Assembly (NCBI GenBank): GCA_036172245.1
Contig: JAYWIR010000015.1
Span: 3,844,001-3,908,000 of the forward strand
Length of the DNA: 64,000 nucleotides
Direction: 5' to 3'
From: Raillietiella orientalis
Taxonomy: Eukaryota
The translations under genes were made by a program, and so were the position numbers. The notes beneath the pieces were generated by a model, which saw only the letters and a program-made list of their open reading frames with translations, did not search any database and was not told the origin of the DNA. How positions within the stretch are numbered: position 1 is the first letter of the stretch; every line of letters begins with the position of its first letter. Positions 35,482 to 62,500 of the stretch are shown here, in pieces.

Positions 35482-36327
35482 ATGAAGTTCAAAGGCAAAA
35501 TAACAGAAATACTGTGCTTGAAGTTATTCACGAATACGTTTGTTGTGTTGTCGAAGATCTGCAAATTCTGTATCATGCGCTTCACGCAGAAAAGCTTGTA
35601 CTTTTTAATCAATGATAGCATTGCATCCGGCAATTTCTGGTTGTGGTGCGAACTGCGTCAAGAGAACATTTTCGAATATTACTGCGTTGAAGGTGTATCC
35701 AAAGAATTAAATGAAATAGTTCTCAAGGTTTCTCCGGACTTCGTCGCCAAAGTTCTGAAAACTGCTCCAATGGCCAAATCTGTGAAGCTGAAATTAACAA
35801 AGAAAGATACACCAGCCCTGAGTTTTGAAGTGGAACAGCCATCACCAACATGCCTTTCAAGGAACGTATGTCATGATATCCCCATTGAAATCGTGCATAA
35901 GGAATACTGGAGCCAGTATAAAGAGCCAGTTATGACTGACCAGCAAATCATGTTTTTCCTGCCAAAAATCAAGATCTTCAAAAATGTACTGGAAAAGCTA
36001 AAAAACTTAGGTCACTTTGTAACCATTTCTATCAATAAAAAATCATTAAAGTTGACACTGGAGACTGAGACTGTACGTGTGACCACACACTTTAATGATG
36101 TTCAATTAGCACAGAACCTTACATCAGCTGGAACAGATTTAAATAATGATGACCACATGATTACAGTGAAAGTGGATGTTCGCAAATTTCATACTTTCAT
36201 CACTTCTATTGAGAATTTAAATGCAACCAAAATCACCTGTAGCATTTCTTGTAGAAGAGGATTATATGTCTCTGTGCTTCATGATGATATTACCATACAA
36301 TACTCACTTCCTGCTGTTGATAATTAA
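35482..36327 (+). CDS. HUS1: Checkpoint protein HUS1 (9-1-1 clamp subunit), 281 aa, single coding exon
   Basis: MKFKGKI...LWCELRQENIFEYY.VEGVS...NEIVL...AKSVKLKLTKK..P.LSFEVE...R.VCHDIPI...LKNLG...LETETVRVTTHF...IQYSLPA follows the Hus1 family over its full length. ATG at 35482 follows a ccag| acceptor-like site. Confidence 0.96.
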   Translation: MKFKGKITEILCLKLFTNTFVVLSKICKFCIMRFTQKSLYFLINDSIASGNFWLWCELRQENIFEYYCVEGVSKELNEIVLKVSPDFVAKVLKTAPMAKSVKLKLTKKDTPALSFEVEQPSPTCLSRNVCHDIPIEIVHKEYWSQYKEPVMTDQQIMFFLPKIKIFKNVLEKLKNLGHFVTISINKKSLKLTLETETVRVTTHFNDVQLAQNLTSAGTDLNNDDHMITVKVDVRKFHTFITSIENLNATKITCSISCRRGLYVSVLHDDITIQYSLPAVDN

Positions 36328-36688
36328 TTATTTTCAAACACAAAAAAATGAAAACTTTTGCAACTCTTAGCTAACATCCTTTGTGTTGGTTAGATCATAA
36401 AATAGACATTCTGCTTGCCAATTAAATCAAGATCAGTCCAAAATGAACCATCCCTTGTGCAAGATATAGCAAAGTTTAAAAAATGTACTGTGCAATTAAA
36501 TTTATTCACATGTTAAAATGTTTCAAAAAAAAAAAAAAGGCAGCTTCACATTTAGCTAGTTAATGTTGCATAATATCTTATTTGAACAAAAATATAATGC
36601 AAAATAACAATACTGTATGATAACACCATGTGTACTTCGGAAGCATATTATAATGATTTTAAAAAGGTTAACTCAGATCAAACAAGAT

Positions 36689-38391
36689 TTAAGTATTTGA
36701 TGAAATGATATTCTGTAAAATATCAACTTCAGGAAGCAAGCCTTTTGGTTTTTTCTTGGATAGATACGAATTCTGCAAGTATAGCAGATGTTCCCTATAA
36801 TAATGCCTAACTGCTTGTGGCTGCTGAACCGAAGAAAACAGACTGTTACTGCAATGACAACAACCCACATGGAAATGGTAATCAGTTGGCCAAAATGGGT
36901 GCCAGTGAGATCTCTTAAAATAATTAGGCATTCCTCGCAATTTCGCTTGTTGGTTTTCTGGCATGGCAGCATTGATCTATGAAAGCAAGTTTCAGAATTG
37001 AAACTGGCACCATTTGAAGAACTTACTTTCATATTTTCCAAGTTTTTCACAACTGAGACCATTCTTTGGCCTTCATCACTGGAACTGGCAAAAGAATTCT
37101 CATTTGCAGCATTTACACCTCCAAAACCTGAGCAATATTTTTGTTTCTTTTTAATTGGGTACACACCTTCAGTTTAGTTGTGATGCATTTTGTAAAAACC
37201 AAACCAAACAATTGAATACAAAAAATGCAAACATAGTCTTTAAATTCATGTCCCAAACAGAAGACTTATGCATTAATTATTCATTCTTTCAATAACATAA
37301 TCAGCTTATATTTTATTTGGAACAGAATATAAATACTTATCAAAAATTATTTAGTCATTATGCTTTCTATATGAATCTGTCATAATCCCATCAAAAGGGA
37401 AAAATTCTTTCCTTATTGCTCAGTTAGATAACTAGAAACAATTTTTGAAATGAACAAAAGTTCAGGCACGGTAAAAGTGTTTCACAGAATGCATTCAAGT
37501 GTAAATGAAGTGCATTTTTATCACACAAACTTGAATTGATTGTACAACTTATCTTTTATTACAAATGGATTTCTTGCATCTTACCCATTTTTAGTGCATT
37601 CTGGGTAGAGATTTTATGTTTCATAGAATTTTCAAGAGCTGACTCCATAACAATGTCATATCTTGTTTCAGTTTCATCTGCAGCTCCTCCCTAAGATAAA
37701 CAAATTGCACACAGCTCTTAAATTTAACACATTGCAAACAGACTTGAAGATATTTTGACTGCATGCTTCAAGCAATATAGTAGGATGAAATGAACATGGA
37801 GATATTCATGTTCATACTACCTGTTTAAGTGCAATTGCAAATCCTACATTCAGCTCAGCAGTAATAAATAAAGTATTTAAATGCAGATGCTCACTGAAGT
37901 TCTTTTTTCCAGGGAATCTTTTGCTGATTCTCCTGTGTTATCTTTCTCAGACTGGAATTCAGAATATTCATTTGGTACTTCTTTTAAAATACATTCCTTT
38001 ATTGTTTTCTGAACTAAATTACAAAAAATTATTTAAATCTATGTTTATCAACAAAAACATTGGAACTGACAAATATTACATTTACTTCTTTTTTCTTTTT
38101 CTTCAAGAAATTCTTTAAGGACATCCTTTCCTGTTTCTGGATCTGTGATTTCAATGATATTTTTTTTTTTTACATTGGATTCTGTTTGAGGAAGCAAATT
38201 TGGCAGCATGAAAGAAACATGTCTTCTTAAAGGATGACAAACATGAGGGCGTTTAAGAAACACATGAGGAAATGGTTGATGTTCTAAAGATGATGTATAC
38301 AATTTATACACTTATATCTAGAAGACTCACCTGATATATAACGATCTGAAAAATTATATTGTGATTGAACTTGATGGGGTATCAGTCGTTT
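36689..38391 (-). CDS. Truncated eIF4G paralogue (PABP-binding and eIF4E-binding motifs only); 5' end unresolved
   Basis: GT-AG exons 38391-38331, 38283-38086, 38013-37895, 37690-37585, 37127-37027 and 36976-36689 splice into an 873-nt stop-free frame ending in TAA. It contains KKKNIIEITDPETGKDVLKEFLEEKEK and VRHYYREHLLYLQNSYLSKKKPKGLLPEVDIL. A candidate upstream exon at ~38740-38885 was not resolved. Confidence 0.8.
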
Positions 38392-40799
38392 CTGCAATTC
38401 AAAAAAATCATACTATGAAATCATGGAAAAAATAAAAAAAGATACCAATATAATTCCAAACTACAAGGATATACGGATTTGGTCTTCCGAAAACACATGC
38501 TTAAAACTCATGACAATCAGAGAATTGGGTACTTTTTGACAAAAATCACTTTCTTTAAGGGTGACCACAGTTATTACTGTCATGAATAATGAAATATTCA
38601 TTATAACTACAAATTCTTCAAGTACACAAATATGCAATCAAGCAAACGTTCCCAAACAATGAAGAATTAAGTACATCACACATATGGAGCACCCACAACA
38701 ATGAGTTTCGAAATGTACATATTACATATGCACACATACACGCAACTGCAGGCCTCAATGCTTGTGAAAGATTGCAGTTATGACGGCAACTATGCAGATG
38801 GGTATTAAATGGGTAAGGGGCTACTATACGGCAGATTGGTCTAACTGTGCTTCCATACAAAGGCATGAACAAAGTATGCATTATTCTGAATTTTTTTGCA
38901 ATATTAACTGATAATTAAAAACACAATTGACAAGCAGAAAAACGCCGAATAGGGTATCAGTTTCAAAATTTACATCCACTGATCAACTCTAATTAACTTT
39001 TAAATTATTTCACAATTACCTGATCAAAATGATTTGTTCTCTTCATCATCCGTAAAAGAAGAATCGAAGTATTTGAAGGAAGTGCCAAGTCTTGAGAAAT
39101 TTTCTCGATTATTGCTAAACATCAAATGCATGTGCAATTCAGCATGCATTTGTAGGCAGTGATTTATTTAATTTTCCTTAGAATAATGAAATCAGAAATC
39201 CAGAATATCCCGGGATCTCGAAACATTTGCTTAGGGTATGATTTAAGTTTGCTATGAAAACTAAGAATTCATACACAGGAGTTTATAATTTAAAAAAACT
39301 AAGCATTAAATCCGATATGATATTTTGAGTACTATTATATCTTTAAGTAGATAAAAGTTAAGCTCATAAATGATCTTTGCAAACATTGCTACATTTTAAA
39401 GAATAAAGGATATGAAAAGATTATTTTACATGAGATTAATGAATTTTAGATTGAATAGGGAGCCTTTTGTTTGAATGAATTCAAAACCTATAATAAAATG
39501 CTGAATCAGAATCTCATCTAGCAATCCATATCAATTAATTTTGAAAACGAAATAAATTTAACGGGGCATTCACAAGCTGTTAATTGATTCCACAAAAATC
39601 GCATATACAAAAAAAATTGAAATGTAATGAAAATCTTAATTCTAAGAAAACTGCCTTTGGTGTTTTTTTCTTATACACAATTTGTTTCTAAATTCTGTAT
39701 TATATGTTATACATATTGTAGCTAACAACGGTAACATGAAAACGTCTTCTATTAAGAGTAAATTGAAGAATTCTAAGTAATTGCTGTTTTAGGCAGTTAT
39801 ACTTATCTTGAAAAATTCAGTTAGGAAAGCGTCTCATCAATATATGAATGTTTTCCAAGAACGTCGTAACATTGTGAGCTGAATCAAAAACAAACGAATG
39901 CTGCATTCTTATTCATTGGTGTAAAAAGTAATTTTATTTTGTAAGAGAAATTAGACCTTGAAAATAATTAATAAGAAAGCAGTAAACTGTTTATGAGTCA
40001 AAAATTAAAAACCACAAGACATTTTATCTATTTTTCTAAATTTCCAATATACTAATGCATGATAACAGAAAATGCTAAATTAGCACATTGTCATTTCAAT
40101 TTTAAGTTTCTCAGCGTTCTGCCTGATGTGCTCATGTTTTCAATTTCCTTGCACCAAAAGTTTATTGCTTCACCAAAAAACCTATTACCAAAAAAGAATC
40201 TTTCCGGTAAGCCTCTTCTCGAGACTGAAAATAGATATTTTAGAAGAGAGTTTGAGATACAAGTTTGAGGGGCAGCTGATATTTACGGGAAAATAAAGCT
40301 ACCTAAGTGAACTTGAAGGCTGCTGATTTCCTGGACCTAGCTGAATATCTGTCGCTGTGAAAGCCAAAGAAATTCTTAGCACTAATTCTTAGGATCAGAA
40401 ACCTGAAAATCATTACAGGGACATCGAGATAACGATATGATACACGTATAATGTGTTTGATGCAGGATTCAGAGCTGGTTACTCTTGCCTCTGCGCTTTC
40501 ACGTACGGACTACCTTCGTCACACGGTTATTATCAAACCAGAACCACTGTAAGATCCAATTAGTGGAAGCTGGTGCTGTGATTAGGCGATTGCCTACACG
40601 CTGAAATGAAGGTCCTTTAGCTCCCTAGGCTCTCGATCTTCGCCGTCGATACAAATCTGGAACTCAGATATGATCCACTGTGTTCAAAGGCATTTTGTTT
40701 CACAATAACAGCTGACGTTACGGATGAACCTTTATGTTCGGGTTTTCCGAGTCCCTTACACGGATAGTCAGTCTTCTATGCTAACCGTGTTCATTTATG

Positions 40800-40966
40800 T
40801 CAATGTTCCTCAGACTGCTCAGTCGTAGATAAACAAAGTGCAATGCTATGGAACCCTCCAAAGTTCCGCAAGCCTTCTTCCAGGTTCATTCTCCACATGG
40901 TTTGCAAGTATCCTGCTTCAGTTTCTATGAAGCGATATGGAGGGCTGAAGCTCCGTGCATCGGGCT
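40800..40966 (-). other. Diverged duplicate of the eIF4G terminal exon (relic or alternative last exon)
   Basis: Ends CLSTTEQSEEH* versus CLSMPEQSEEH* in eIF4G. tcaatgttcctcagactgctc is identical at 40800 and 45676. It is preceded by a polypyrimidine tract and cag| acceptor in phase 1, like the true last exon (167 vs 173 nt). Confidence 0.7.
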
Positions 40967-44800: not shown

Positions 44801-45675
44801 AACTGGAACTCAATTCAAAATCGCAACTATTTTCAGAATAGCTTGCTGGCATCGTGTCATCTATTCGCACGTGCGGCAAACACAAAAAGCAGCATGCAAA
44901 AATTTAGTTCCAGTTTAATTTTTTTTTTTTTTCAATGATAAAACAGCTAAAGGGGGCAATGAATGAATTGTGCAAATTACACACCGTAGTGATCTGCGTG
45001 TAATCACCAAGGTTACTAATTGTCAGGGTCTTATTGCTTGCACGCCTAATTTTTACCATTTCCATTACCAGCGAAGCAAACAAGAACCAGGACCAAGCAT
45101 TTTTCCTATTTCCAACACGGCGCAAAGTTAATTTTTCTTTATTCTATAAGGCTATTTACATACATTTATATGATTAAAAATGTGAAGCTTAATTAAAATA
45201 TAAAATATGGATTCTTTTCCGCATTTACACCGGTAGTACACAGAAGCAGTCCTCCTACAAAACAAAATTCGTGACGGCGGAGGCGGCGGCCACGAAAGAT
45301 GGCGACTACCCCAAAATGCAAAACTACTGTGCAAAATTTCAAAGCACACACACACGCACGCACACTTACACATACATATTAAAGTCTTTTAATGCTACGT
45401 GATTTTTTTTTTTTTTGACTTTAAAATCTGAACAAGAATCATATATCGAATACAACCACATGGTTATATGCAGAACCGGCACCACTCGTTCACTTTCATG
45501 GGGAAAATTGCAGCATCAAGATATCGGCATGTCAACAAAAATAAACGACTTTAAAAATGTATTAATATACACTGTTACTTTGTCATGTTAACTTTTTAAA
45601 AAAAGTTGCATAATATACTGTTCTGGAGACATGTCAATAAATAGCTGGGCTAGGATCACTATAACCACATTTACG

Positions 45676-48600
45676 TCAATGTTCCTCAGACTGCTCGGGC
45701 ATAGATAAACATTCAAAGAAACGGTTTGTTGATTTCACAGCCACACCCTTCCCCTCCATTTCTGATACGTCCTCCTTCCACATTTTGAAGACGTTTCCCA
45801 TCACCAAATCTTTATCTTCAAGGAATTGGAAGCAACTCCGGAGGAAGTCTAGGCACGAGAAAAAGAAAAAAAAAAAGGCAAAACAGAAAGCATGAAACAG
45901 TTTGTGCATAGCTCCAACCTTGGGGATGATCGAGGATTAAATCTAGATGCTGCAAGGCAAGCAAGCACTGGAGTTGGAAATTTTCGTCTTCGCCAAGGTA
46001 CTTTTTGAGCACGAGCTCGTGCACACTGCAAGCGTTCTCGAAGTTGTACGTTCCCCCTTCTAAAAAATCGCCAGCGTGTGTGAGCAGCAAAGTATTTAGC
46101 ACCACAGATTACCCTTTTTCTCATTTAAGGTCATAAAAACGGCACTCGTTAAGGCACGAATGAAAGGATTACTGTACTGCACATCTTTATGATGTTCCTG
46201 GAACAAAAGGAATGGATTACAGATTGCAGTAGGGTCAGTCAGTTCACATGCAAAGCCACATCCAACAGCGTCAGTATCCTTTTGACTATTCGCACAGTTT
46301 CACCAGTTGCATAAAGCAACCTCGCACAAGCAAATAGGTCTCATCAGTGTACTGCTGGCTATCCCGCAATTCCACCACCACGGGTTACTTACCACAATCC
46401 ACGTGTCGATCTCCATGCTGGAAACTGCCTTTGAAAGCAAGTTATACAAGGAAAAATAGGTGTTCGCATCACAGTGTTTGGGGACTTTACATTTGGACAA
46501 GGGTGCCTTCTGCAAATGAAAGAAAATAATAGGACAATGCTTGGTCACAAAATCCCTTCTGAGACTCACAGGTTGCTTATCACTGGGGGTACTAAGAGTA
46601 CTCGATGGTTCCTTTATCCCTTCCAGGATTTCATCTATGAAAGCCTCGGGTTTCTGTATGTTCAGAAACTTCCAAGTTTCAGGAGAAATTTCTTTGCCCA
46701 CTTCTTGCGCTTTAGCCCGATTCTTGACAAAAAACAAAAAGTTAAGTTCGAAAGAATTTTTTCCTGTTTTCCCTTTACCTCATGGGTTGCAATATATTCA
46801 AGTATGGGTTTGACGAACTTTAGGCGATTTGCTTCCTCGCCATAATCTAAATCTTTCAAGAAATTGATGGAGATAATTCCGTTGGTTATTGCTGGAGCTA
46901 CGAAAAAGAAAAAGAATTTAGTTTGCATCAGCACACATTCCAACCACACACGCTGTCGATGTACCTATGATATGTCCCAAATACATCCACAGCAACGGAA
47001 TATCAAGTTCTAAATCTGGGGCGTTACGAATAGTTTCTTGCAACCTTTGAACAGTAACTTAAATGTAACAAAATTTAAATCATTTCGCCACAACGCACCC
47101 GTCAATGTAAGTCTGCGCAGAAATCAGCTTGGCTTTGACTAGATGAGCAAGATGATAACTGCCTTCCATTCTTACTGACGCAGGCTTTTCAAGCAAAACA
47201 TTTATCATCTCTAGCACAATCGTATCTACGTTCGAAGAATGAAACTTCTCTGTTACCACTTTGCAGAATGCCTCATTCTGATGGGGAAGATTAGGGAGAG
47301 CGAAAGAGGTATAAAATTCCAGGCACACAAGCACAGGCACATGCATGCACACACACACACAGACACAAGAACTACCGTTAACTTGGTGGGGAGTAAATTA
47401 CAAATATCATCGATTATTTTTCGCAGCATCTCGTTGTCCATTTTTGCAGGCCCCTGAAAAGTCAATTCCACATTCTTGTGGGCTTCATGTGTGGCATGAC
47501 TGTTACTTTGCAACTCTGAAGAAATAAGATACGGTTTGCATAGGTTTTAGCATTTTCACGAGCTTACCATGACGTTTGATTCCTTCCATGCTTTGGCTAC
47601 GGTTTTGGCAATCGGGATGCGTATCACGGTATTTTTCAGTAAATTCTCTGCTGGTAGAACTGAAGAAAACATCATGAAATTGACGCTCTACTTTACGAAC
47701 CCATACAACACAGGACGACTTTCCACTCCATCAGCAAGGGGTGAAAAACGATTGCTAATCGTGGTTCCTTTCGCCTCTTCCTGCTTAAGCTTTCCTAAGC
47801 TGCTTCCTGAGCCCCAAGTCTGTGAACCCTTTGGAGCAAACATCACTAGTTCATATTCCTGAAAGACACGACGTTCATGATGGAGAAATTCATAACTTCC
47901 TGAAGAAAAGCAAAAACAACCATCAATTCAGACAGAACATTGACTAACAGCATTCACTGATCAGAGACTCTAATCTGGTTGTTACTGATTCATCATTGTT
48001 CATCAAAAAATAAAAAAAAAAATTCAAAGGCCTCACCTTGGGAATGTTGGGTATTTTGTTTACATCATAGCTTTCACTCTTATATGATTTGGAGCTTTTG
48101 CTTGGATGAATCCAACCATCACTTTCAGGATGAGCTATGCTAGCAAATAAAAAACGAAATAAAGTACAATTTCCTCACAGCTTCTGCTCTTCTTTCTTTC
48201 TTCAGGCTGCTTCTTTGAGCTGGTATACAATTCCATCTGTTGCTTATAAGCCTCTATCTGAGCATCATTGTGTATTTCATCAATAGTCTTTGGATTGTTT
48301 GTGGCTCTTCGAGGTTTCCAATTATTTTCCTTGAGATCAATAAGATCCTGCAGCATAAAACGCACACGGCTAGATACAGTCCGTTTATTTATGATGTTCT
48401 GAATTTGTTTGAAGTAATGTAAGCAGAAATCCGCAGAATTCTGAAAAGGCAAAGTAACTTTACAATTACCTTTGTAACATGCTGTGCATTACCTCGGATT
48501 GTTCGTTTTCCAATTCTCTGCCAATAGTACTTAGTAAATGACACAAACATTCCAGAGAATCCTCATCATCTTCATTTTTGAGCAAAAATGAAAGGCAAGT

Positions 48601-51600
48601 ATTCATAATATTTGTATTTAGCATTCTTAATTTGTACAGCTCTCCTATAAATCTAAAAAAAATCGCAAATGTACATGACATATCTATTTCCTTATGTATG
48701 CTATAAACCTTATATTTCCAAGGTATTTCCGCTTGGCCTTTTGTTTATCATCTTCATCATTAGCATTTCGTTCTTTTTCAAATTCCTGTTGGCATCTATT
48801 AAGAAGAAGCTTACGAAATGTTATTTTGTCCCTATCTACTTGAAGGACTTCCTTGCTAAGAAGTTCCTTACACATTTTGGCATACTCTACTGCAAAATTT
48901 GGTTCCTCGACAGCCTAAAAAAACAAACTGCTTTGATGCTGAATTTAAGGAATTTTCAGCAACTATGCTTGCAGTAAACCGTTTCAGAAAGATAACTGTC
49001 TTCATTGAAAATCAGACAGGGATAACAAACATCATAAATTTCCCAAACTTTTTTTCATAGATGAGCCATTTACCTTTTCAAATACCAAATTTATGATTCC
49101 TTCCAATCTAAACTGCGTATCTATTTCTAAAGCATGAATCTTATCAATTAGTGTATGGAACTTTTGTGGTGTCAACTTATTTAATATACTTCTGAACTTC
49201 TTAAATAGTGACTAAAACAGAACACTGTTAGACAATGAATCAATTAACACGCTCATTACTTGATCTTTCTCTGTCTCATTGCTTTGACGAGAGCATTTAC
49301 TGGAAGGCTTCCATGCATTCTCGGTTTCATGTAAGTCAACTTTTTCATTTAATAGGACCTTCAACTCAATAAATTTGGGAGCAGGTTTACTGCTTCTACC
49401 CTGAAGGCTTCCCCTACTTGAACGAGGCACCTAGATCCAGATAATGATTGGTCATCATCACTAATGCTGCCTACACACCATTTTGGGAGTGATCCCTGAT
49501 TTATCCAATGGAAAGCTTGGGTAGAAATCTATCGTTTCATTGTTTCTAGGAAAACTTGATCCCCTCCTTGGCACTGAAGCCTGCATCAAATGAAAACGAT
49601 TTGATATAACAATCTCCACTGGTTATAAACACGTTAGATACCTTATTAGATGACTGGCCATTTGAAAATTCCTGTTTCAATTCCTTCGGTTTTTGAATTG
49701 ACAAGAAAACGTGCTGCAAATCCATAATGAACTCCCGACTGTACTTCCTTATTCCATCAGTATTAACATATCCAACTTCTTTTTGGCATTTCACAGCATT
49801 ACTATTATCTTGCGCTTGAATAGAAGTGCTTTCACGACCATCTTTCGCTTCTTTCGAATCCTTAACATCTTTCGCTTTCGATTCCTTAACATCTTTCGCT
49901 TCTTTCGAATCCTTAACATCTTTCGCTTCTTTCGAATCCTTAACATCTTTCGCTTCTTTCGAATCCTTAACATCTTTTGCTTCCTTGACATCTTTCAGTT
50001 CTTTTGCTTCCTTGACATCTTTCAGTTCTTTTGCTTCCTTGACATCTTTCAGTTCTTTCGCTTCCTTGACATCTTTCAGTTCTTTCGCTTCCTTGACATC
50101 TTTCAGTTCTTTCGTATCCTTCGCATCTTTCAGTTCTTTCGTATCCTTCGAATCCTTTACATCCTTCACATCTTTCGAATCCTTTACATCCTTCACTTCT
50201 TTCGTATCCTTCGCATCTTTCGAATCCTTTACATCCTTCACTTCTTTCGAATCCTTTACATCCTTCACTTCTTTCGAATCCTTTACATCCTTCACTTCTT
50301 TCGAATCCTTTACATCCTTCACTTCTTTCGATTCCTTTACATCCTTCACTTCTTTCGATTCCTTTACATCCTTCACTTCTTTCGATTCCTTTACATCCTT
50401 CACTTCTTTCGATTCCTTTACATCCTTCACTTCTTTCGATTCCTTTACATCCTTCACTTCTTTCGAATCCTTTACATCCTTCACTTCTTTCGAATCCTTT
50501 ACATCCTTCACTTCTTTCGATTCCTTTACATCCTTCACTTCTCTCGATTCCTTTACATCCTTCGCTTCTTTCGATTCCTTTGACTCTTTCACTTCTTGCA
50601 CATCTACCACATCACTCACACGTGGTTCTTTATCCTAGGGAAATAAAAGGAATTAAAATAAAACGAACACGCATTCGTGTACATGAAACATCTGTTTGGT
50701 TTCATAAAGAATAGAAAGTAATAAAATGAATACTCACATCTTCCAATTCTTTAGCATTCGTAGGTTGCTGAATGATAATATCCTCTTTCATTTGATCACC
50801 CTCAAGTTGTACTTCATTTTGCACAGGTTCTTCACTTTCTACATGCAAATATTAAAGTAAGTTTTGCGGATTGTATGTATCAAAATGCACTGATCATTCT
50901 TAGAAAGAGGCATATAATATTAATTGAAAAAAAAACTACTCCGAAATGCACGACAATCACTGTACATGGCAGCCTAAATGGTTTCTCAAGATTATTGCAA
51001 AATCAGTACACTTCGAGCACGTTCTTGTAGCGCTCGGCAATACTTCAATCTTGCCAAAAATAGCATTCGCTCTATGAGCAGCAGCAATGGTAAAATTGTA
51101 CTGTTGCCAATTGGAAATAAATTTCCGAACTTCAGATTCACTGGATATTAAAATGCTATAATTGATTAAATATTCCGTGCTTTCGTGTGCAAATTTTACG
51201 CAGCTGTTAAAAGCATTACATTTCAATAATGCCTAAAAAATTTTAAATGCTCCTTTCATGGACGAACACTGATCAAAATAATTATGGGGTAATGCACGGG
51301 AATAGCTTGTTACAGGGTAAAAATTTTGAAAATGTCACAGCCAGTTCCTGAAAAACGATGTACTCAATTGAATTAATGAAGTCTAATTGGCTCAAACCAT
51401 GCGTCTATTTATAATAGAAGTTTACTGGTAATTTACAAAAAAGCGCTCGTAAACTTTAGCCTGGTATTTTGGGGATATGGATATATGTCAACTGAGAAAA
51501 AATGCATGAATCATTTTCACTGAAATTACGGTGTATTTTTGACACTATATTCTTTAATTACGAAGTTGCAGTACAACCCCCTCTCTAATATACCAGTGAC

Positions 51601-54600
51601 CTCTTAGAAGAATTTAAAAATTTGAAACACTGTAAATTGTTCACATTGTTATTCTGGTGACCAACTTGCAAACAAGATAATTTCGAAATATGGCAATAGC
51701 AGCCTAAATACCTGTGAATATTCAATACCTTAGTGATAGGTGAGCATATTCACAAAATCTATGTTCCAAGAATTACATGACTAATGAGAAAATGAAGGCA
51801 ACACACGTGCAGATACACCAAAAAAAGGCGCAAATTACGTTTGGCAAAACAGAAAATGCTAAAATTGTTTCTCCAAAAACCTGTGTAGTACCGAAGTTAC
51901 TAAAATAATACTCGACTTTGTTTATCTTAAACTCATTTGCAGATATATTCAACTATCAGTAAGTAAACTGACAAGAATGTAATGTTTATTAAAATTTGCT
52001 TATAAGATTCAACAAGGAGCAAAGAACAATTGGATATAAAATGCAGATGCAATTTCAATATTGATAGTTATTAAATTTAGAATCTGCTTTCAAACCACTA
52101 GTCTCATTTCTGAATTAGTTTTCATTTAACAAGAAATTTGACAGGAGAAATCCAGAATCAAGCAGATAAATGCTCTCAATCAGGAAATACCATACTTGAG
52201 AGACAAATACCTACTCTAAACACTTGCAGACAAGACTGGTTTGCAAAATGCTGTTCAACCAATGTGCTACTTGATAAAAATAAGTCATAAGAGTACTTGA
52301 TGGGGGCTATGAATTTTTTACATCAATGTAGAAAACAAATTTCTCGAGTTTGTACTTATATAGTTCTTGTTTTATAAGGTTATGCATTAGATGCACAGAA
52401 AATTGTACGCAAGCACACAATCATTAAATAATGCAAACAAAATTCATTGCACATGGGTTCAAAACTCACTGAACACCTACTACTAGCTTGCTTGTTGGTT
52501 ATGTCAACATAAATCAACTTTACAATACTGAAATTGAGCTTTTCGGGACCAATGAACACAAGACTTGTGATTATCCAAGACAATGAAATGCCTTTTTTCT
52601 AAACATCATTTCTAAACATCAGCTACAGGTACATCAAAACCATTACCAACTGAAGCTCTTAAAGAAAGAAAAGAAAACAAGGATGATGAAAACTTTCGAC
52701 ATAAGAAAAAATTATGGGCACACAATATGTAAAGCTAAATATGCTGGGCAGCTCAAAACACCTCCAACAAGAGGCAACTTTAATATTATAAAAACGTTTC
52801 ACGAACAAAATGACTTCTATATTCTCTCACATTCTCAATAGTTTACTTTTAGATGAATGCAATAATCCAAAGCTATTTTAAACCTGGAAGCAGGGGACTG
52901 CAACTGCAGAATCTTTCCAGAGTTACACTGCAATTTTTAAACTTCCAGGTACATAAGTCTCTTGAACTTAAATGGATTCAGTTGTAATTAACAGACTAGA
53001 AAATAAATCTTATGTGCACAAAAACATGTGAAATGAATAAATCTCTAACATGGATACCGACTCAACAAACTATTGCCAATGATCAAAGGAGTTGAGACCA
53101 TTAACAACAGCTACATATATAGACCCTCAAGCCAGGAAATCAAGAAATACGTGTATATTATCCACCAATATCCACTTACAAAGACACAGGCTTCAGAAAT
53201 TCCGTATGAATAGAACAGATGCACAAAAGACTACCACAAATAAAACATGCAAAACCTTCTCAAAGGTCCTAATAAGCTTTGGGAAATGAAATGAAATAAT
53301 ATTCCTTAGCTTGCACACAACACAAAACCAATTCATTAAATACAAATCCTACATATTTGATTTAAGGCATCAAAATTCTACAGAACATTAAATTCATTAC
53401 AGGTACACAATCTTCAAATGCGAATCGGAAAAAATGCACACCTAACTTATAGGTGCTTAATAGAAACTCACCATGAAAAATCTCAATATACAGAATAGAT
53501 TAACAATCAATGAATTTTAAGGCATAAACATTTAATGTGTAACTGAAATCATATCAATTTCATATCAAGTGCTGCTTTGAAGTAATATTGTTCACAAGAT
53601 ATGCATGGACAGAGTGAGCAAGTTTTTGTTTATTTAACAATTTTAAAGATCAAGTATAACACAAAACCACCTGTGACTACAGTCAACCTACCATTGTTGA
53701 CTCCATCCACATTAGTTCCTATCTGCACATTATCCTCCTGAGAAGTCATGACCACTAACTCATTTTTATCAACATCCTCAGAAAACATATCACTTGTAAA
53801 TTGATGTAATATATCACTATCTAAATTCATGGGTGACTGTGCATCACTAGTTACAAGAGTCATACTGGGTGTGCTTTCAACTTCAGGGAAAGGGAGGGCA
53901 TCATTAACTGTCAAAGAAGCTGATATGCTTGGCTCAAATTCAGGTAACAATAAATCTTTACTCTCCCCATAAGCTACGTTTGCCACCTGCCTTGCAAATT
54001 CTGCTTTAATGGATTCCTTGAAAAAAACGTGAAAAAATTCGTGCCATGTCCCTTACTGACACTACTTACTGATGGGAGAGAATCACATACTCCAGTTTCA
54101 CCAGAAAGAGTGTTTCCCTGATTCATTCTTTCTTTTTCCTTTTCCTCTAAAAATTCTTTCAGTACATCTTTTCCTGTATCTGGATCTTTGATTTCAATAA
54201 ATGTCTTTTTTCTTTCGGTCCTAACAGGTTCACTTGAGGAACTTGAAGTCTGGGTGATGACAGGCAATCCACGAGGCATTGTCTGTCCCACAGGTGTTGT
54301 CACCACATACATGGCAGGATTGAATTGTGCATACTCTGCTATACAAAGAACACAATCGAATTTCATCTACATTAAACTTACCAGTAATTAAAGAAGGATA
54401 ACTATACCCAGGAGTCATTTGAGAATACATCATTCTATTAGGCTACAAATAAACAATGAATCAACAACAAAGTACATCTCATTGATTTCTGAATTGGTTA
54501 GTTGCAAAGAATAGAATGAAATAAACAATGAAATAGCAAACAAACAAACAGGATAAATCTGGGATCACAATTCATGCATTATTCCATGAAATTCACTTTA

Positions 54601-55280
54601 TTAAACATATTTGCAAGTTCCATCACTAAGCTATCAAATCATATGCTCTAAGCTGTTATATTTTCATAATTTAAATAATAACCTGAACAACAAACAGCTA
54701 TTGTTCAAATCTTAAATATGCTACACATATATAAATACAGAACATCTAATATGTGGGAACTTGTCCACATATAAAGGGGAATTTTCAAATAGCTCACCAT
54801 GTGTGCAGTTGGTGAATTAAAAATGACTGATGGTATCATTGTGTTGTTGAAGTAGTTTCCTTGTGAATGAGGATTATAATTCACTGAAGTAGTTGGCATT
54901 ATGTACTTTGGTGTCTGATAGAAATCAGCAAACAAGCACATCCCATAAATGCTTAATCACATGTTTCTAACCTGGATGTTTCCTTGAGGCCGTGAACTTC
55001 GTGGAAACAACATAGAATTTGCAACAGATGAAGAACTTCCTAATAAACATATACTTTATGAAAAAATTTTTTGAACTTTTGACAAATTTTTGCACAACTT
55101 TCAAAAGCTTTCAGATTACTCGTTAACATCACACTTTATCAGCAGACCGTCACGAAAATTTTCATCATACTGGACTCCATAAATGAAATCCAATTACACT
55201 GCACACACTTCAAAAAATGATTATGCATAGCATTTACCTTGCAATGAGCTGGGGTTGGTATGCAAGGCTTGCTTATTCAT
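45676..55280 (-). CDS. eIF4G: Eukaryotic translation initiation factor 4 gamma (divergent), ~26 coding exons
   Basis: Exons: 55280-55238, 55039-54972, 54914-54798, 54442-54382, 54338-54070, 54016-53692(or 53671), 50838-50738, 50634-49642, 49580-49479, 49430-49260, 49211-49074, 48914-48709, 48652-48493, 48440-48179, 48134-48037, 47858-47701, 47659-47568, 47515-47376, 47277-47099, 47044-46965, 46897-46779, 46722-46570, 46509-46393, 46197-46113, 46059-45919, 45848-45676. Motifs: IEIKDPDTGKDV (PABP), YSREFIM, ENAWKP; MIF4G (RSILNKLTPQKF, FRKLLLNRCQQEFE, LGNIRFIGELYKL, SRVRFMLQDLIDL); MA3 (DIPLLWMYL); W2 (FIRALTSAV, LQCLLALQ, GKGVAVKS). Confidence 0.95.
49835..50600 (-). repeat. Coding minisatellite (9-nt subunit, 27-nt unit) encoding ~250 aa of xK[D/E] within eIF4G exon 8
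   Basis: Units such as ttctttcgattcctttacatccttcac encode SKEVKDVKE/D, then AKELKDVKE, then SKEAKDVKD blocks. Confidence 0.97.
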
Positions 55281-59574: not shown

Positions 59575-62500
59575 ATTTGCAAATAGGATGCATAAAGGAA
59601 TGGATAAAGGCAATAATACATCGGCATTAAATTGAGACTTACACGTCTCGAACCAAAGGCTGATTATCATGCGAAACCGAATTATTTCACAATTTTTTTC
59701 TTTTTTTTTTGTGCCATTATGCAAAAGCAAGCTTGTGAAAATACCTAAATTCCACGAAGAATTTTGCCTTTCCGATCTCCAACCTCATGAAGCACTCAAA
59801 AAAAGAGATTCATTTGTGCAAAAAAAAAAAAAAAAAAAAACCCGCCAACAATGCTGCGAGGCAGCAATGAACTGACTTCAATGGACTCGGTGGAAATTAA
59901 AATGCACCTCTTGCAGATGGGGAGAACGTGATGACGGTGCAGCCGGCGGCTGCAACCCGTTCCTCCCATCCCGTGACCATCGAAAGGGGGGGGGGGGAAG
60001 GAAGGATCGCGCACGGAGCAGGCTGGGTTTTTTTTTTCTTTTTTTCCTTTTTTTTTTTTTTTTTTTTTTTTTCCTGCCAGGTCTTCACGAAGAAACCGAC
60101 CTCGGGTTTGCCCGGTAAACGCACACGGATTTTCAAGTCTGTTTTCGAAGCCTCCGACTGCAAGAAACACGTCAACACCCTGCAATGTTGATGGTCCGCG
60201 CTCTTTCTTCGGCTCCCCCTCTTCCCCAGAGAAGACCAAGCCTTCGTGGTGCACGAGGAAAAATTCGTACACGCTTCTTCTGTACGGTGCCGATTTACAG
60301 TAGCCCCTTGCAAAGTGTGCTCTTTCTTCTTCGTGTGGACGGGGGGGAACAGACAGACAAGGGTTCGGGAGCAGAATCACAAAAGGATAGTGTATTTGCA
60401 AATTGCAAATCGAGCTTGTTGTTCCCTGGGACGAGGTGAGTATCGATCTCGATGGACTTCTGAATTTCTGTAAGTTTCAGCCAAGACAAAAGAAAGGATC
60501 TGCACAGCATCAGTGGTCTCAGAGATAATGCATCTGAACAGAAATGTAAATTTGAGCATTTAGTTTGCGCTAACAAGAACATAATCTGAAAATCATTACC
60601 ATCGTTCCATCTTTTCCCAACTGTTTGCATATTTTGTTTTTACTCAAAATTACGTAAGTGCTTGTAAAAATGCAAATTTGGGATCCAGATCCAAAGAGTC
60701 CTCGCTAATAACGTATAAAATAAATGTGCATGGATATTTCTAAGGAAAACTAATGATGGTCTCTCGAAATTCGCATGAGAGCTGTGTGAAACATTTGGGA
60801 TCAATGCATAGAAAAAACACAAAAGTTTATGAAGATCAGGATGAAGCAGATCGGGACTCCGTAATGAATCTCGAGGTGATGAACCAGAAGTGCGAGAAAA
60901 GCATGTTTTCCTAACTGGAAAACTGTACAGAAATGGATACCAATGTCAGGAATTTACATTTGATTTATTGCTCGCTTCCGTTATCGTTGGTCATTCACTA
61001 ACGATGATACGAGAACGAAGAAGAATTTTTCTTTCGGTTTTCTCTTATCTAAGGAGAATTTGAAGCTAGCATTTACTAAAGTGTTTGCTTTGGATAGATT
61101 GCCTTTTCGTAAAATGCAAGGGACTCACATTGGTGGTTGGCGTGAAATGCAAATGAGGAACTTATCGATCTATGCCTACTTTGAGGTCTTAGCAATGCGT
61201 GCAGTATTATTCGTGTTGGTTATTCGGTTAGTATTAGGGGAGAAATGTGTTCACTGATAATGATCGGAATAATTTGCTTAAATAACCTTTTTTTTTATCA
61301 TGGAAATTCTATGCCTATTATTCAGAAATCCAGCAGTTCAGAAGCTGAAGCAAGAAGGGCTTGCTTCAGCTTCTATTACTATACTTGCTTTACGATACTC
61401 AGCTCCAGTTTCATTTCAGAATTGGCACAGGAAAAGGGAGGCATTAAAAATTTCTGATTTTGATGTGTTAGGTTGCATTTCACACTTCTTCGGTAGTTTC
61501 CTAAACATTCTCCAAATTTCTCCATGGAATTGGTGTTGTTCCCTGCCGATCCTTACTTTTTTTTTTTTTTTTTTTTTTACTCATGTCTTCTTACAACGCT
61601 GTTTATTTAATGAGTGGAAGCAGCAATGAGAAACCGATAACTTGGTCATCAAGGGGTAAATTGTCCGAACCGGTAACAGTGCGGCCGCTGTAGATATGTT
61701 CTATTTCGCCTTGTGTCCCTGCTGTGCATGGTAAGAGTACAGTACCAAACCGTATTCGTGATCTGGAAAAACAACACGATTCGTGCTAGAAGCCTGTATC
61801 CGAGATTTTACACTCAATGTCCAAGTCTGAAACATGTTGTAACATCTGTAGAAGTTTTTCATCTGAACCACATTCGAATCGAAATGGACTCAAGACCTCG
61901 TTCTATGTTGCCGTTAAGTTACCAGTGATTCCAATGCACAACTGGAGAAAGGCTGCCATAAAAGTTTTGAATGTGAAGTGAAAGAAGAAATCTTAGAGAG
62001 CAGTACTCAAATGAAGGGATATTTACGAGCTGCATCGAGAACTTTGTATGATAGTGTTCTCAGAATACCTCTTCACAGTACTGATTTGCTGCAATAGTAC
62101 ATCAACTGGAAACAAGGGAGCACAGTACTGTTGTATGGGGAAATATGGTATGGGGAGAACCACAAAGAAATAATCCATTCTTTGCATAAGAAAAAGGACT
62201 TGCAGTACGAGTCTGAATCAAAGAGCAATTAAAAACGGAAATTTCGGGTTTCTTTGCCAAAAAAGTTTGCGACGTTTAACCTTATCTTTGTGTATCTTAG
62301 CACAATGATTTAATGTACTGCTTATTTATTGCTAGATGATAAAAAGAAACTTTCTCCTCTAACCTCGATATGGTTGGTTATTAAAGGGGTGTAGTCTTTT
62401 ATCGATCCATCATGGGTAAAATTTAGCAGAAGAAAGGACCACATCGGGAGCTGAACGGGCAGTCTTGCAGGATCTATGTAATTTTAGTCAATCTACCATG

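Follow-up and report, generated by a model that had tools for sequence, protein, structure and literature searches.

The closest described counterpart of the gene reported here is 2A-cpN, the N-terminal product released from human eIF4G1 by the enteroviral 2A protease, which the excerpts of a 2026 preprint used for this comparison describe as a potent dominant repressor that has the sites for the poly(A)-binding protein (PABP) and for eIF4E and no MIF4G domain (PMC13081929). In the same excerpts, repression is lost upon removal of either the PABP or the eIF4E site, the resulting state is referred to as a 'dead-end closed loop', the N-terminal fragments of human eIF4G1 generated by caspases do not repress, and the conclusion is drawn that the cap-to-tail closed loop can serve silencing instead of initiation (PMC13081929). 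The eIF4E-binding proteins are competitors of eIF4G that lack any domain for ribosome recruitment, according to the consulted sections of two papers (PMC4164784; PMC6061780); the canonical motif is given there as Tyr-X4-Leu-phi (phi, hydrophobic), with a hydrophobic non-canonical motif located approximately 15-29 residues downstream (PMC4164784). Here, we describe a gene on the minus strand of a 64,000-nucleotide (nt) stretch of the Raillietiella orientalis genome (contig JAYWIR010000015.1, positions 3,844,001 to 3,908,000; hereinafter the window, whose own numbering is used throughout) that appears to encode the N-terminal module of eIF4G alone. This gene (38391..36689, minus strand), denoted the short gene, lies downstream of a full-length eIF4G of the parental type on the same strand (eIF4G-A; 45679..54914, 5' end not defined). 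Like 2A-cpN, the short gene carries putative PABP and eIF4E sites on a single chain, without MIF4G and without eIF3 or eIF4A sites; unlike 2A-cpN, which results from proteolysis of the full-length protein in infection, it is a separate spliced gene that ends at an exon boundary. To our knowledge, descriptions of 4E-BP, Cup, 4E-T and Mextli mention neither an origin from the eIF4G N-terminus nor a PABP motif of the eIF4G type. Paip2, a small translational repressor that acts through PABP, uses the PAM1 and PAM2 motifs, which are unrelated to the eIF4G motif, and contains no eIF4E-binding motif. A keyword search of the open-access literature returned no described gene for the N-terminal PABP-plus-eIF4E module of eIF4G alone.

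The six GT-AG exons of the short gene, originally recognized in a reading of the sequence alone and rejoined here from their coordinates, yield 873 nt, that is, a stop-free frame of 290 codons followed by TAA. Exon 2 (38391-38331) is 61 nt long, runs from phase 0 to phase 1 and starts directly after an acceptor (ttgcag); the ATG must therefore come from one or more exons further upstream. Exon 3 (38283-38086) holds the eIF4G-type PABP-binding motif, and exon 4 (38013-37895) opens with TIKECILKEV, a weak counterpart of SIKAEFARQV, the box located after the eIF4G-A PABP motif. The linker is encoded by the acidic, serine-rich exon 5 (37690-37585) and by exon 6 (37127-37027), the donor of which (GTAAGT) opens an intron of 50 nt, and the last exon, exon 7 (36976-36689), encompasses the eIF4E-binding region (hereinafter the 4E region) and the TAA codon (36691-36689). 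The introns start, in order, with GTGAGT, GTAAAT, GTGAGC, GTAAGA and GTAAGT, and all acceptors are YAG. The stop codon is separated by 361 nt from that of the convergent HUS1 gene, in line with the initial estimate of about 360 bp.

A spliced frame of this length is far beyond chance. We searched for the longest stop-free chain that could be assembled with GT[AG]A[AG] donors and YAG acceptors, permitting no more than five introns, each 40-500 nt long, and no exon shorter than 50 nt. When the span was shuffled 1000 times with its dinucleotides preserved, this chain averaged 239 nt (standard deviation 98, maximum 672) and never reached 873 nt; on the plus strand of this span, it measured 243 nt. 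The longest chains of 34 real control windows varied between 114 and 828 nt (114-426 nt in the ten windows with 30-33% G+C), the longest ones being G+C-richer minus-strand stretches upstream of eIF4G-A. Codon usage was assessed as a log-ratio, with 916 codons from HUS1 and eIF4G-A as the training set and local non-coding trinucleotides as the background. The proposed frame scored +0.214 per codon, compared with -0.057 and -0.332 for the other two frames, and the 225 spacer codons taken alone scored +0.191. The 55 stop-free control open reading frames (ORFs) had a mean of -0.035 (standard deviation 0.16, maximum 0.39), and the training pieces themselves scored 0.11-0.59, values that are biased upward because they are self-scored. 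Among the individual exons, exon 4 scored 0.49 and exon 5 scored 0.36, and exon 2 (-0.16 over 20 codons) was one of the two weakest.

The PABP-type motif IEITDPETGKDVLKEFLEEKEK is encoded at 38090-38170 (minus strand) in exon 3. The block containing this motif shows 83% nt identity over 83 nt (E 1e-17) to positions 54133-54215 of eIF4G-A, where the eIF4G-A motif itself occupies 54133-54213 (minus strand), and 22 of the 27 residues are identical (blastn and tblastx), which bears out the near-identity with the adjacent eIF4G that had been claimed at the outset. The short-gene sequence K-K-K-N-I-I-E-I-T-D follows the same pattern as the human KRERKTIRIRD, a basic cluster and then I-x-I-x-D-P, and mutation of the human motif abolishes PABP binding according to the preprint excerpts (PMC13081929). 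The motif also fits the pattern of that in the Thrips eIF4G (P0020). Thus, at the sequence level, the short gene possesses the N-terminal PABP-binding motif of eIF4G.

Beyond the PABP block, blastn and tblastx detected similarity between the short gene and eIF4G-A in short islands only, including a 4E block with 13 identical residues out of 28. Nevertheless, Smith-Waterman scores against eIF4G-A were 121 for the N-terminal part (shuffle maximum 49) and 60 for exon 7 (shuffle maximum 38), with none of 500 shuffles scoring as high in either case. Exon 2 and the eIF4G-A exon at 54442-54382 are alike in length (61 nt) and phase (0 to 1); the introns that follow them are 47 and 43 nt long, respectively, and the exon after that is the one with the PABP motif, located 43 residues from the exon start in the short gene and 47 in eIF4G-A. 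The sequence-only reading had considered the spacers unalignable to eIF4G. The shared exon length, phase and short intron indicate that the spacers are not wholly unrelated to it. The flanks of the short gene can no longer be aligned. Given that introns and exon architecture are common to both genes, the short gene is a DNA-level duplicate; a retrocopy is ruled out by its five introns. A recent gene-conversion patch as the source of the PABP block is rejected in view of 6 synonymous differences in 22 codons.

Exon 7 contains the canonical motif YYREHLL (36782-36802, minus strand), the non-canonical stretch KKKPKGLLPEVDIL (36716-36757, minus strand) and a Y-x3-W-x-P box (36893-36922, minus strand); the first two are found where the original reading had placed them. 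For an outside reference, we built a profile from the 4E regions of five unrelated arthropod eIF4Gs (P0018-P0022), drawn from the 7 eIF4Gs, including those of Limulus, Thrips and Cyprideis, that were matched by the MIF4G exon of eIF4G-A. In the MAFFT alignment, the short gene aligns with these proteins at three points, namely, the Y-x3-W-x-P box, the canonical helix (YYREHLL versus YDRxFL[LMI]) and the non-canonical stretch. In the latter, K-K-P-x-G-L-(L)-P-E-V-D-I-L of the short gene corresponds to K-K-P-x-G-L-P-x-x-(D/E)-V-(V/I) of the arthropod eIF4Gs, with the core GLP(D/N)(M/L)(D/E)V(V/I) aligned to LLPEVDIL. Exon 7 scored 20.0 bits against the profile, as compared to a shuffle maximum of 7.6, and none of 2000 shuffles scored as high; the profile thus identifies a putative 4E region of the eIF4G type. 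The segment LLPEVDIL starts 15 residues past the canonical motif, so that both motifs of the 4E-BPs are present, as sequences, at a compatible distance, and the frame ends 8 residues past the non-canonical one. According to the preprint excerpts, mutation of the human helix YDREFLL abolishes eIF4E binding (PMC13081929).

The 4E region of eIF4G-A (motif at 49669-49752, minus strand) scored 28.3 bits (shuffle maximum 6.8). It is atypical in having Y-S-R-E-F-I-M, with Ile at the Leu position. The profile alignment passes through the non-canonical stretch in the short gene and ends before it in eIF4G-A, which has neither the Y-x3-W-x-P box nor the G-L-P...V-V-L stretch; both are found in the five arthropod eIF4Gs and both are kept by the short gene. 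Because the W-x-P box and the G-L-P...D-I-L stretch are missing from eIF4G-A, the short gene cannot have copied them from there, and the two genes have each kept different ancestral residues of the 4E region. Between the W-x-P box and the helix, the short gene has a His/Cys/Trp-rich insertion (36850-36890, minus strand; H-F-H-V-G-C-C-H-C) that yielded weak, non-significant matches to zinc-binding modules among PDB entries (ROCK2 C1-like domain, E 0.094; FHL2 LIM domain, E 2.3) and might represent either a metal-binding patch or mere composition.

The short-gene frame stops where its alignment with the 4E exon of eIF4G-A ends: SSNT followed by the stop codon in the former corresponds to SSNK followed by the donor gtatct in the latter, and in the DNA alignment the TAA lies at most 6 bases from the eIF4G-A exon junction. 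No GT[AG]A[AG] donor was found within exon 7. A tblastx search of positions 1-36000 against eIF4G-A, at E values up to 1, detected no exon of the eIF4G body, the single match (E 0.69) being to non-eIF4G sequence near 60880. Pfam recognized MIF4G only in eIF4G-A (four ORFs, 48138-49211, minus strand), and neither in the short gene nor in the 111 minus-strand ORFs located between 39000 and 45600. The claimed absence of MIF4G, MA3 and W2 therefore stands, inasmuch as Pfam and tblastx find no such exon downstream in the window. Accordingly, the short gene lacks the MIF4G/HEAT-1 domain of a functional eIF4G scaffold; Pfam reported no domain at all for it and, as in the 4E-BPs, no ribosome-recruiting domain is present. 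The simplest history of the locus is a partial duplication with a breakpoint in the intron after the 4E exon.

Retention of the last intron (50 nt; 37026-36977) would leave the frame from exon 6 open for 151 codons, to position 36673; the resulting 939-nt product would have no 4E motif and would end in a hydrophobic, Cys-rich tail. Exon 7 is thus open in two frames over its entire length, an unusual situation for a G+C content of 38%. The codon score of exon 7 is +0.07 in the 4E frame versus -0.04 in the read-through frame, and it is the 4E frame that matches the outside eIF4Gs.

Nei-Gojobori counts against eIF4G-A gave, for the PABP block, a synonymous divergence (dS) between 0.78 (22 codons) and 1.11 (27 codons), near saturation, and a nonsynonymous divergence (dN) of 0.058-0.105, with the age estimate being rough because it rests on only 12-16 synonymous sites. 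In the 4E block, every synonymous site has changed (saturation), and dN is 0.47. By these counts, the duplicate is old, and a recent copy or conversion is excluded. We then simulated neutral decay by mutating the 870-nt frame randomly according to the local base composition in 5000 copies, without indels, which would lower survival further. An open frame together with all 20 GT/AG bases was retained by 1.5% of the copies at 5% divergence, by 0.02% at 10% and by none at 15% or more. The real short gene shows no damage in any of its 290 codons or 20 GT/AG splice bases, and because neutral divergence of 5% spares only 1.5% of the copies, the intact frame points to selection. Taken together, these observations indicate that, throughout most of its existence, the frame was kept up as coding sequence. 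The inference of selection made in the sequence-only reading is strengthened by the old dS, the neutral-decay simulation and the retention of ancestral 4E residues that eIF4G-A has lost.

The foremost alternative is that the short gene is a non-functional relic, that is, a truncated unprocessed pseudogene that arose by tandem duplication and deletion and is either unexpressed or recently dead, so that its open frame reflects past selection. Such a history would fit the state of the start codon, which is known as candidates only, the 44-nt remnant of an eIF4G 3' end that lies 1.7 kb upstream and could signify decay of eIF4G-derived DNA, the odd His/Cys/Trp-rich spacers, the weak codon score of exon 7, and the failure to find an orthologue in collections devoid of close relatives. 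It is hard to reconcile with the survival of the complete frame and splice sites despite a dS of at least 0.8, given the neutral expectations above, or with the low dN of the PABP block (0.06-0.10), the ancestral 4E residues that eIF4G-A has lost and the in-frame codon bias of the spacers. We consider the relic explanation unlikely, although the gene could have died during the most recent few per cent of divergence, and the sequence data make it probable that the short gene is a real gene kept by selection.

The interpretation that we favor, to which we would assign about even chances, is that the short gene is an old, intron-containing partial duplicate of eIF4G that is coding, encompasses about 300-340 residues, and acts as a competing, repressive binder of eIF4E and PABP. 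The protein would be an N-terminal eIF4G module consisting of the PABP motif, an acidic linker and a bipartite 4E region, in which the Y-x4-L-phi helix would be complemented by the hydrophobic non-canonical stretch 15-22 residues later. As the frame stops where the 4E exon of the parent splices towards MIF4G, no eIF4A, eIF3 or 43S complex would be recruited. The short protein could replace full-length eIF4G on the dorsal and lateral surfaces of eIF4E while also keeping hold of PABP, and the outcome would be a closed cap-to-tail bridge unable to load ribosomes, leading to repression or storage. We infer expression of the gene, its binding to eIF4E and PABP, and the repressive outcome: provided that the gene is real and kept by selection, there is a good likelihood that the product binds both partners, and if it does, a net effect of repression is quite likely. 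The case for repression derives from the analogy with human 2A-cpN, as described in the preprint excerpts (PMC13081929), and on this basis the most likely action would be competition for eIF4E and PABP, which would be held together in an unproductive closed loop. We put forward only tentatively the stronger version of this proposal, namely, that the short gene is a genome-encoded counterpart of 2A-cpN, a dedicated, selected gene whose product bridges eIF4E and PABP in a ribosome-free messenger ribonucleoprotein and serves as a physiological device for mRNA silencing or storage. The specific role in the germline or in dormancy that had been suggested initially finds no support in the present data.

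The comparison with described systems shows which features the short gene would share with each of them. Compared with 2A-cpN, the short gene is shorter, with about 190 residues between the two motifs, and has His in place of Phe and an insertion of 23 residues. It resembles 4E-BP1-3/Thor, Cup, 4E-T and Mextli in the combination of a canonical motif with a downstream hydrophobic one, as these proteins are presented in the consulted sections (PMC4164784; PMC6061780), and differs from them in that its 4E region is, by the profile, recognizably eIF4G-like. With full-length eIF4G-A, it shares a homologous PABP motif, the 4E region and the 5' exon architecture; unlike eIF4G-A, it has no MIF4G, MA3 or W2 and lacks the 28-copy array of 27-nt repeats. 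If expressed, the short gene would be a natural, heritable version of 2A-cpN, implying that the same architecture has been adopted in evolution, and would provide a simple genetic handle on the non-productive closed loop in vivo. It would also represent a new origin of eIF4E-binding regulators, by truncation of eIF4G at an exon boundary. If unexpressed, it is a partial duplicate that is unusually well preserved but of limited interest.

Several observations weigh against the favored interpretation. The Phe of the eIF4G helix (YDRxFLL) is replaced by His in the short gene (YYREHLL), and the W-x-P box and the helix lie apart, with the 23-residue His/Cys/Trp-rich insertion between them. Exon 7 combines a weak codon score (+0.07) with a second open frame; the start codon and the first exon are known as candidates only; and the estimate of age, with so few synonymous sites behind it, is approximate. 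Neither motif exon is recognized by Pfam, by the PDB sequence search or by the ESM Atlas, no orthologue of the short gene was found in protein collections that are without close relatives, and the 44-nt relic 1.7 kb upstream shows that eIF4G-derived DNA has decayed at this locus.

The His for Phe replacement and the insertion may change the affinity for eIF4E or the choice of eIF4E paralogue. A second alternative is that the short protein is a real binder of eIF4E, PABP or both with a role other than general repression, such as stabilization or storage of capped, polyadenylated mRNAs, shielding of eIF4E from 4E-BPs, titration of PABP, or service of a particular eIF4E paralogue. The same sequence evidence that underlies the favored interpretation is compatible with such a role, the atypical helix and the lineage-specific insertion could shift the choice of partners, and the caspase-derived N-terminal fragments of eIF4G1 did not repress, implying that the outcome depends on the sites that are held (PMC13081929). 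Against this, 2A-cpN, the sole tested protein with such sites in the preprint excerpts, represses and needs both of them (PMC13081929), and no other activity is suggested by the sequence, in which Pfam finds no domain. We regard a non-repressive role as rather improbable, although stabilization or storage in place of plain repression deserves to be kept in view. The remaining alternative, that the gene model is wrong or incomplete owing to another or longer transcript, an isoform that retains the last intron, the presence of the rest of an eIF4G paralogue beyond the window or an assembly error, would draw on the undefined 5' end and on the longer 939-nt read-through frame to 36673 that is without the 4E motif, and appears highly improbable, given the in-frame TAA at the homologous exon end, the absence of a GT[AG]A[AG] donor from exon 7, the absence of eIF4G-like exons from positions 1-36000 by tblastx (E values up to 1) and by Pfam (ORFs of at least 120 amino acids), the occupation of the downstream space by HUS1 and an esterase gene, and the matches of the 4E frame, rather than the read-through frame, to outside eIF4Gs.

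Two candidate first coding exons, both on the minus strand, could be spliced to exon 2 in phase 0: one at 39020..39049, with two ATGs, 10 codons and the donor CAG|gtaatt, and an alternative one at 38726..38881, with an ATG, 52 codons and the donor TAT|gtaata. When the sequence preceding exon 2 was aligned at the DNA level to exon a of eIF4G-A, no convincing similarity emerged, and neither candidate resembles the upstream exon of eIF4G-A. On the 3' side, a possible poly(A) signal, AATAAA, is located at 36501..36506 (minus strand), 183 nt past the stop codon; it is a weak candidate, as this hexamer occurs 78 times in the window.

Database searches were performed with both motif exons. Exon 7 yielded 27 candidates within longer proteins, none of them at E <=0.01, and exon 3 produced 7 matches among representative proteins, with no orthologue of the short gene. 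In two control searches of the same kind, HUS1 yielded 860 candidates, none at E <=1e-10, and the MIF4G exon of eIF4G-A yielded 7 matches with 37-53% identity. These controls indicate that the collections contain no close relative, and hence the missing orthologue carries little weight. Pfam reported nothing meaningful for exon 3 or exon 7, with two chance-level rows for the latter (E 0.23 and 0.3); PF21140 was reported neither for exon 7 nor for the 4E region of eIF4G-A itself. The PDB sequence search returned three rows for exon 7 (E 0.094-9.8), none of them eIF4G, and one row for exon 3 (E 6.7), and the ESM Atlas gave no usable match for exon 7. Among the exon 3 matches, P0001 and P0003 are unrelated repeat proteins, whereas the unnamed proteins P0002, P0004, P0005 and P0007 and a hypothetical protein of Plakobranchus ocellatus (P0006) contain 2-11 tandem eIF4G PABP units with a motif of the type R-K-I-I-Q-I-K-D-P-N-S-N-K-D-V. 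Like the short gene, these five proteins carry eIF4G-type PABP motifs without a Pfam-detectable MIF4G; unlike the short gene, none of the five contains Y-x4-L-phi. These uncharacterized predictions are either tandem exon arrays mis-predicted as proteins or unrecognized multivalent PABP binders.

The 44-nt sequence mentioned above (40792..40835, minus strand) is located between eIF4G-A and the short gene and is 91% identical to positions 45668-45711, at the 3' end of eIF4G-A. It covers the last eight codons, the stop codon and the first bases of the 3' untranslated region, with the similarity continuing beyond the stop; an exact 22-mer inside it occurs at these two places only. Protein-level similarity around the copy is marginal, and RNA folding of the 44-nt stop region gave no structure signal (z-score +0.63). 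The sequence is either what is left of another eIF4G copy or a conserved element, and it points to a more complex duplication history.

The W2 domain of eIF4G-A is identified by Pfam at 45679-45936 (minus strand), and the exon between its PABP and 4E motifs includes a tandem array of 27-nt units at 49839-50597 (28.6 copies, 85% matches), which encodes about 250 residues of nine-residue K/D/E/V/S repeats; the short gene has no such array. The window is compositionally divided, with about 60% G+C (maximum 65%) in positions 1-32000 and 30-42% from approximately 34000 on; the drop between 32000 and 34000 is sharp and may reflect either a natural isochore boundary or an assembly join, and the short gene sits on the minus strand of the A+T-rich part. 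An Rfam search of the whole window yielded zero matches. In the G+C-rich part, Pfam analysis of the 123 ORFs of at least 120 amino acids in positions 1-35400 detected no family besides that of a spliced carboxylesterase-family gene on the minus strand, extending from about 27557 to 21627 (COesterase; best ORF, E 1e-49). The locus of the short gene is bounded by the convergent, intronless HUS1 gene at 35482-36327 (plus strand; Pfam Hus1, E 2.7e-64, residues 1-279 of 281), which is a single unbroken ORF of 281 codons although the neighboring genes are intron-rich.

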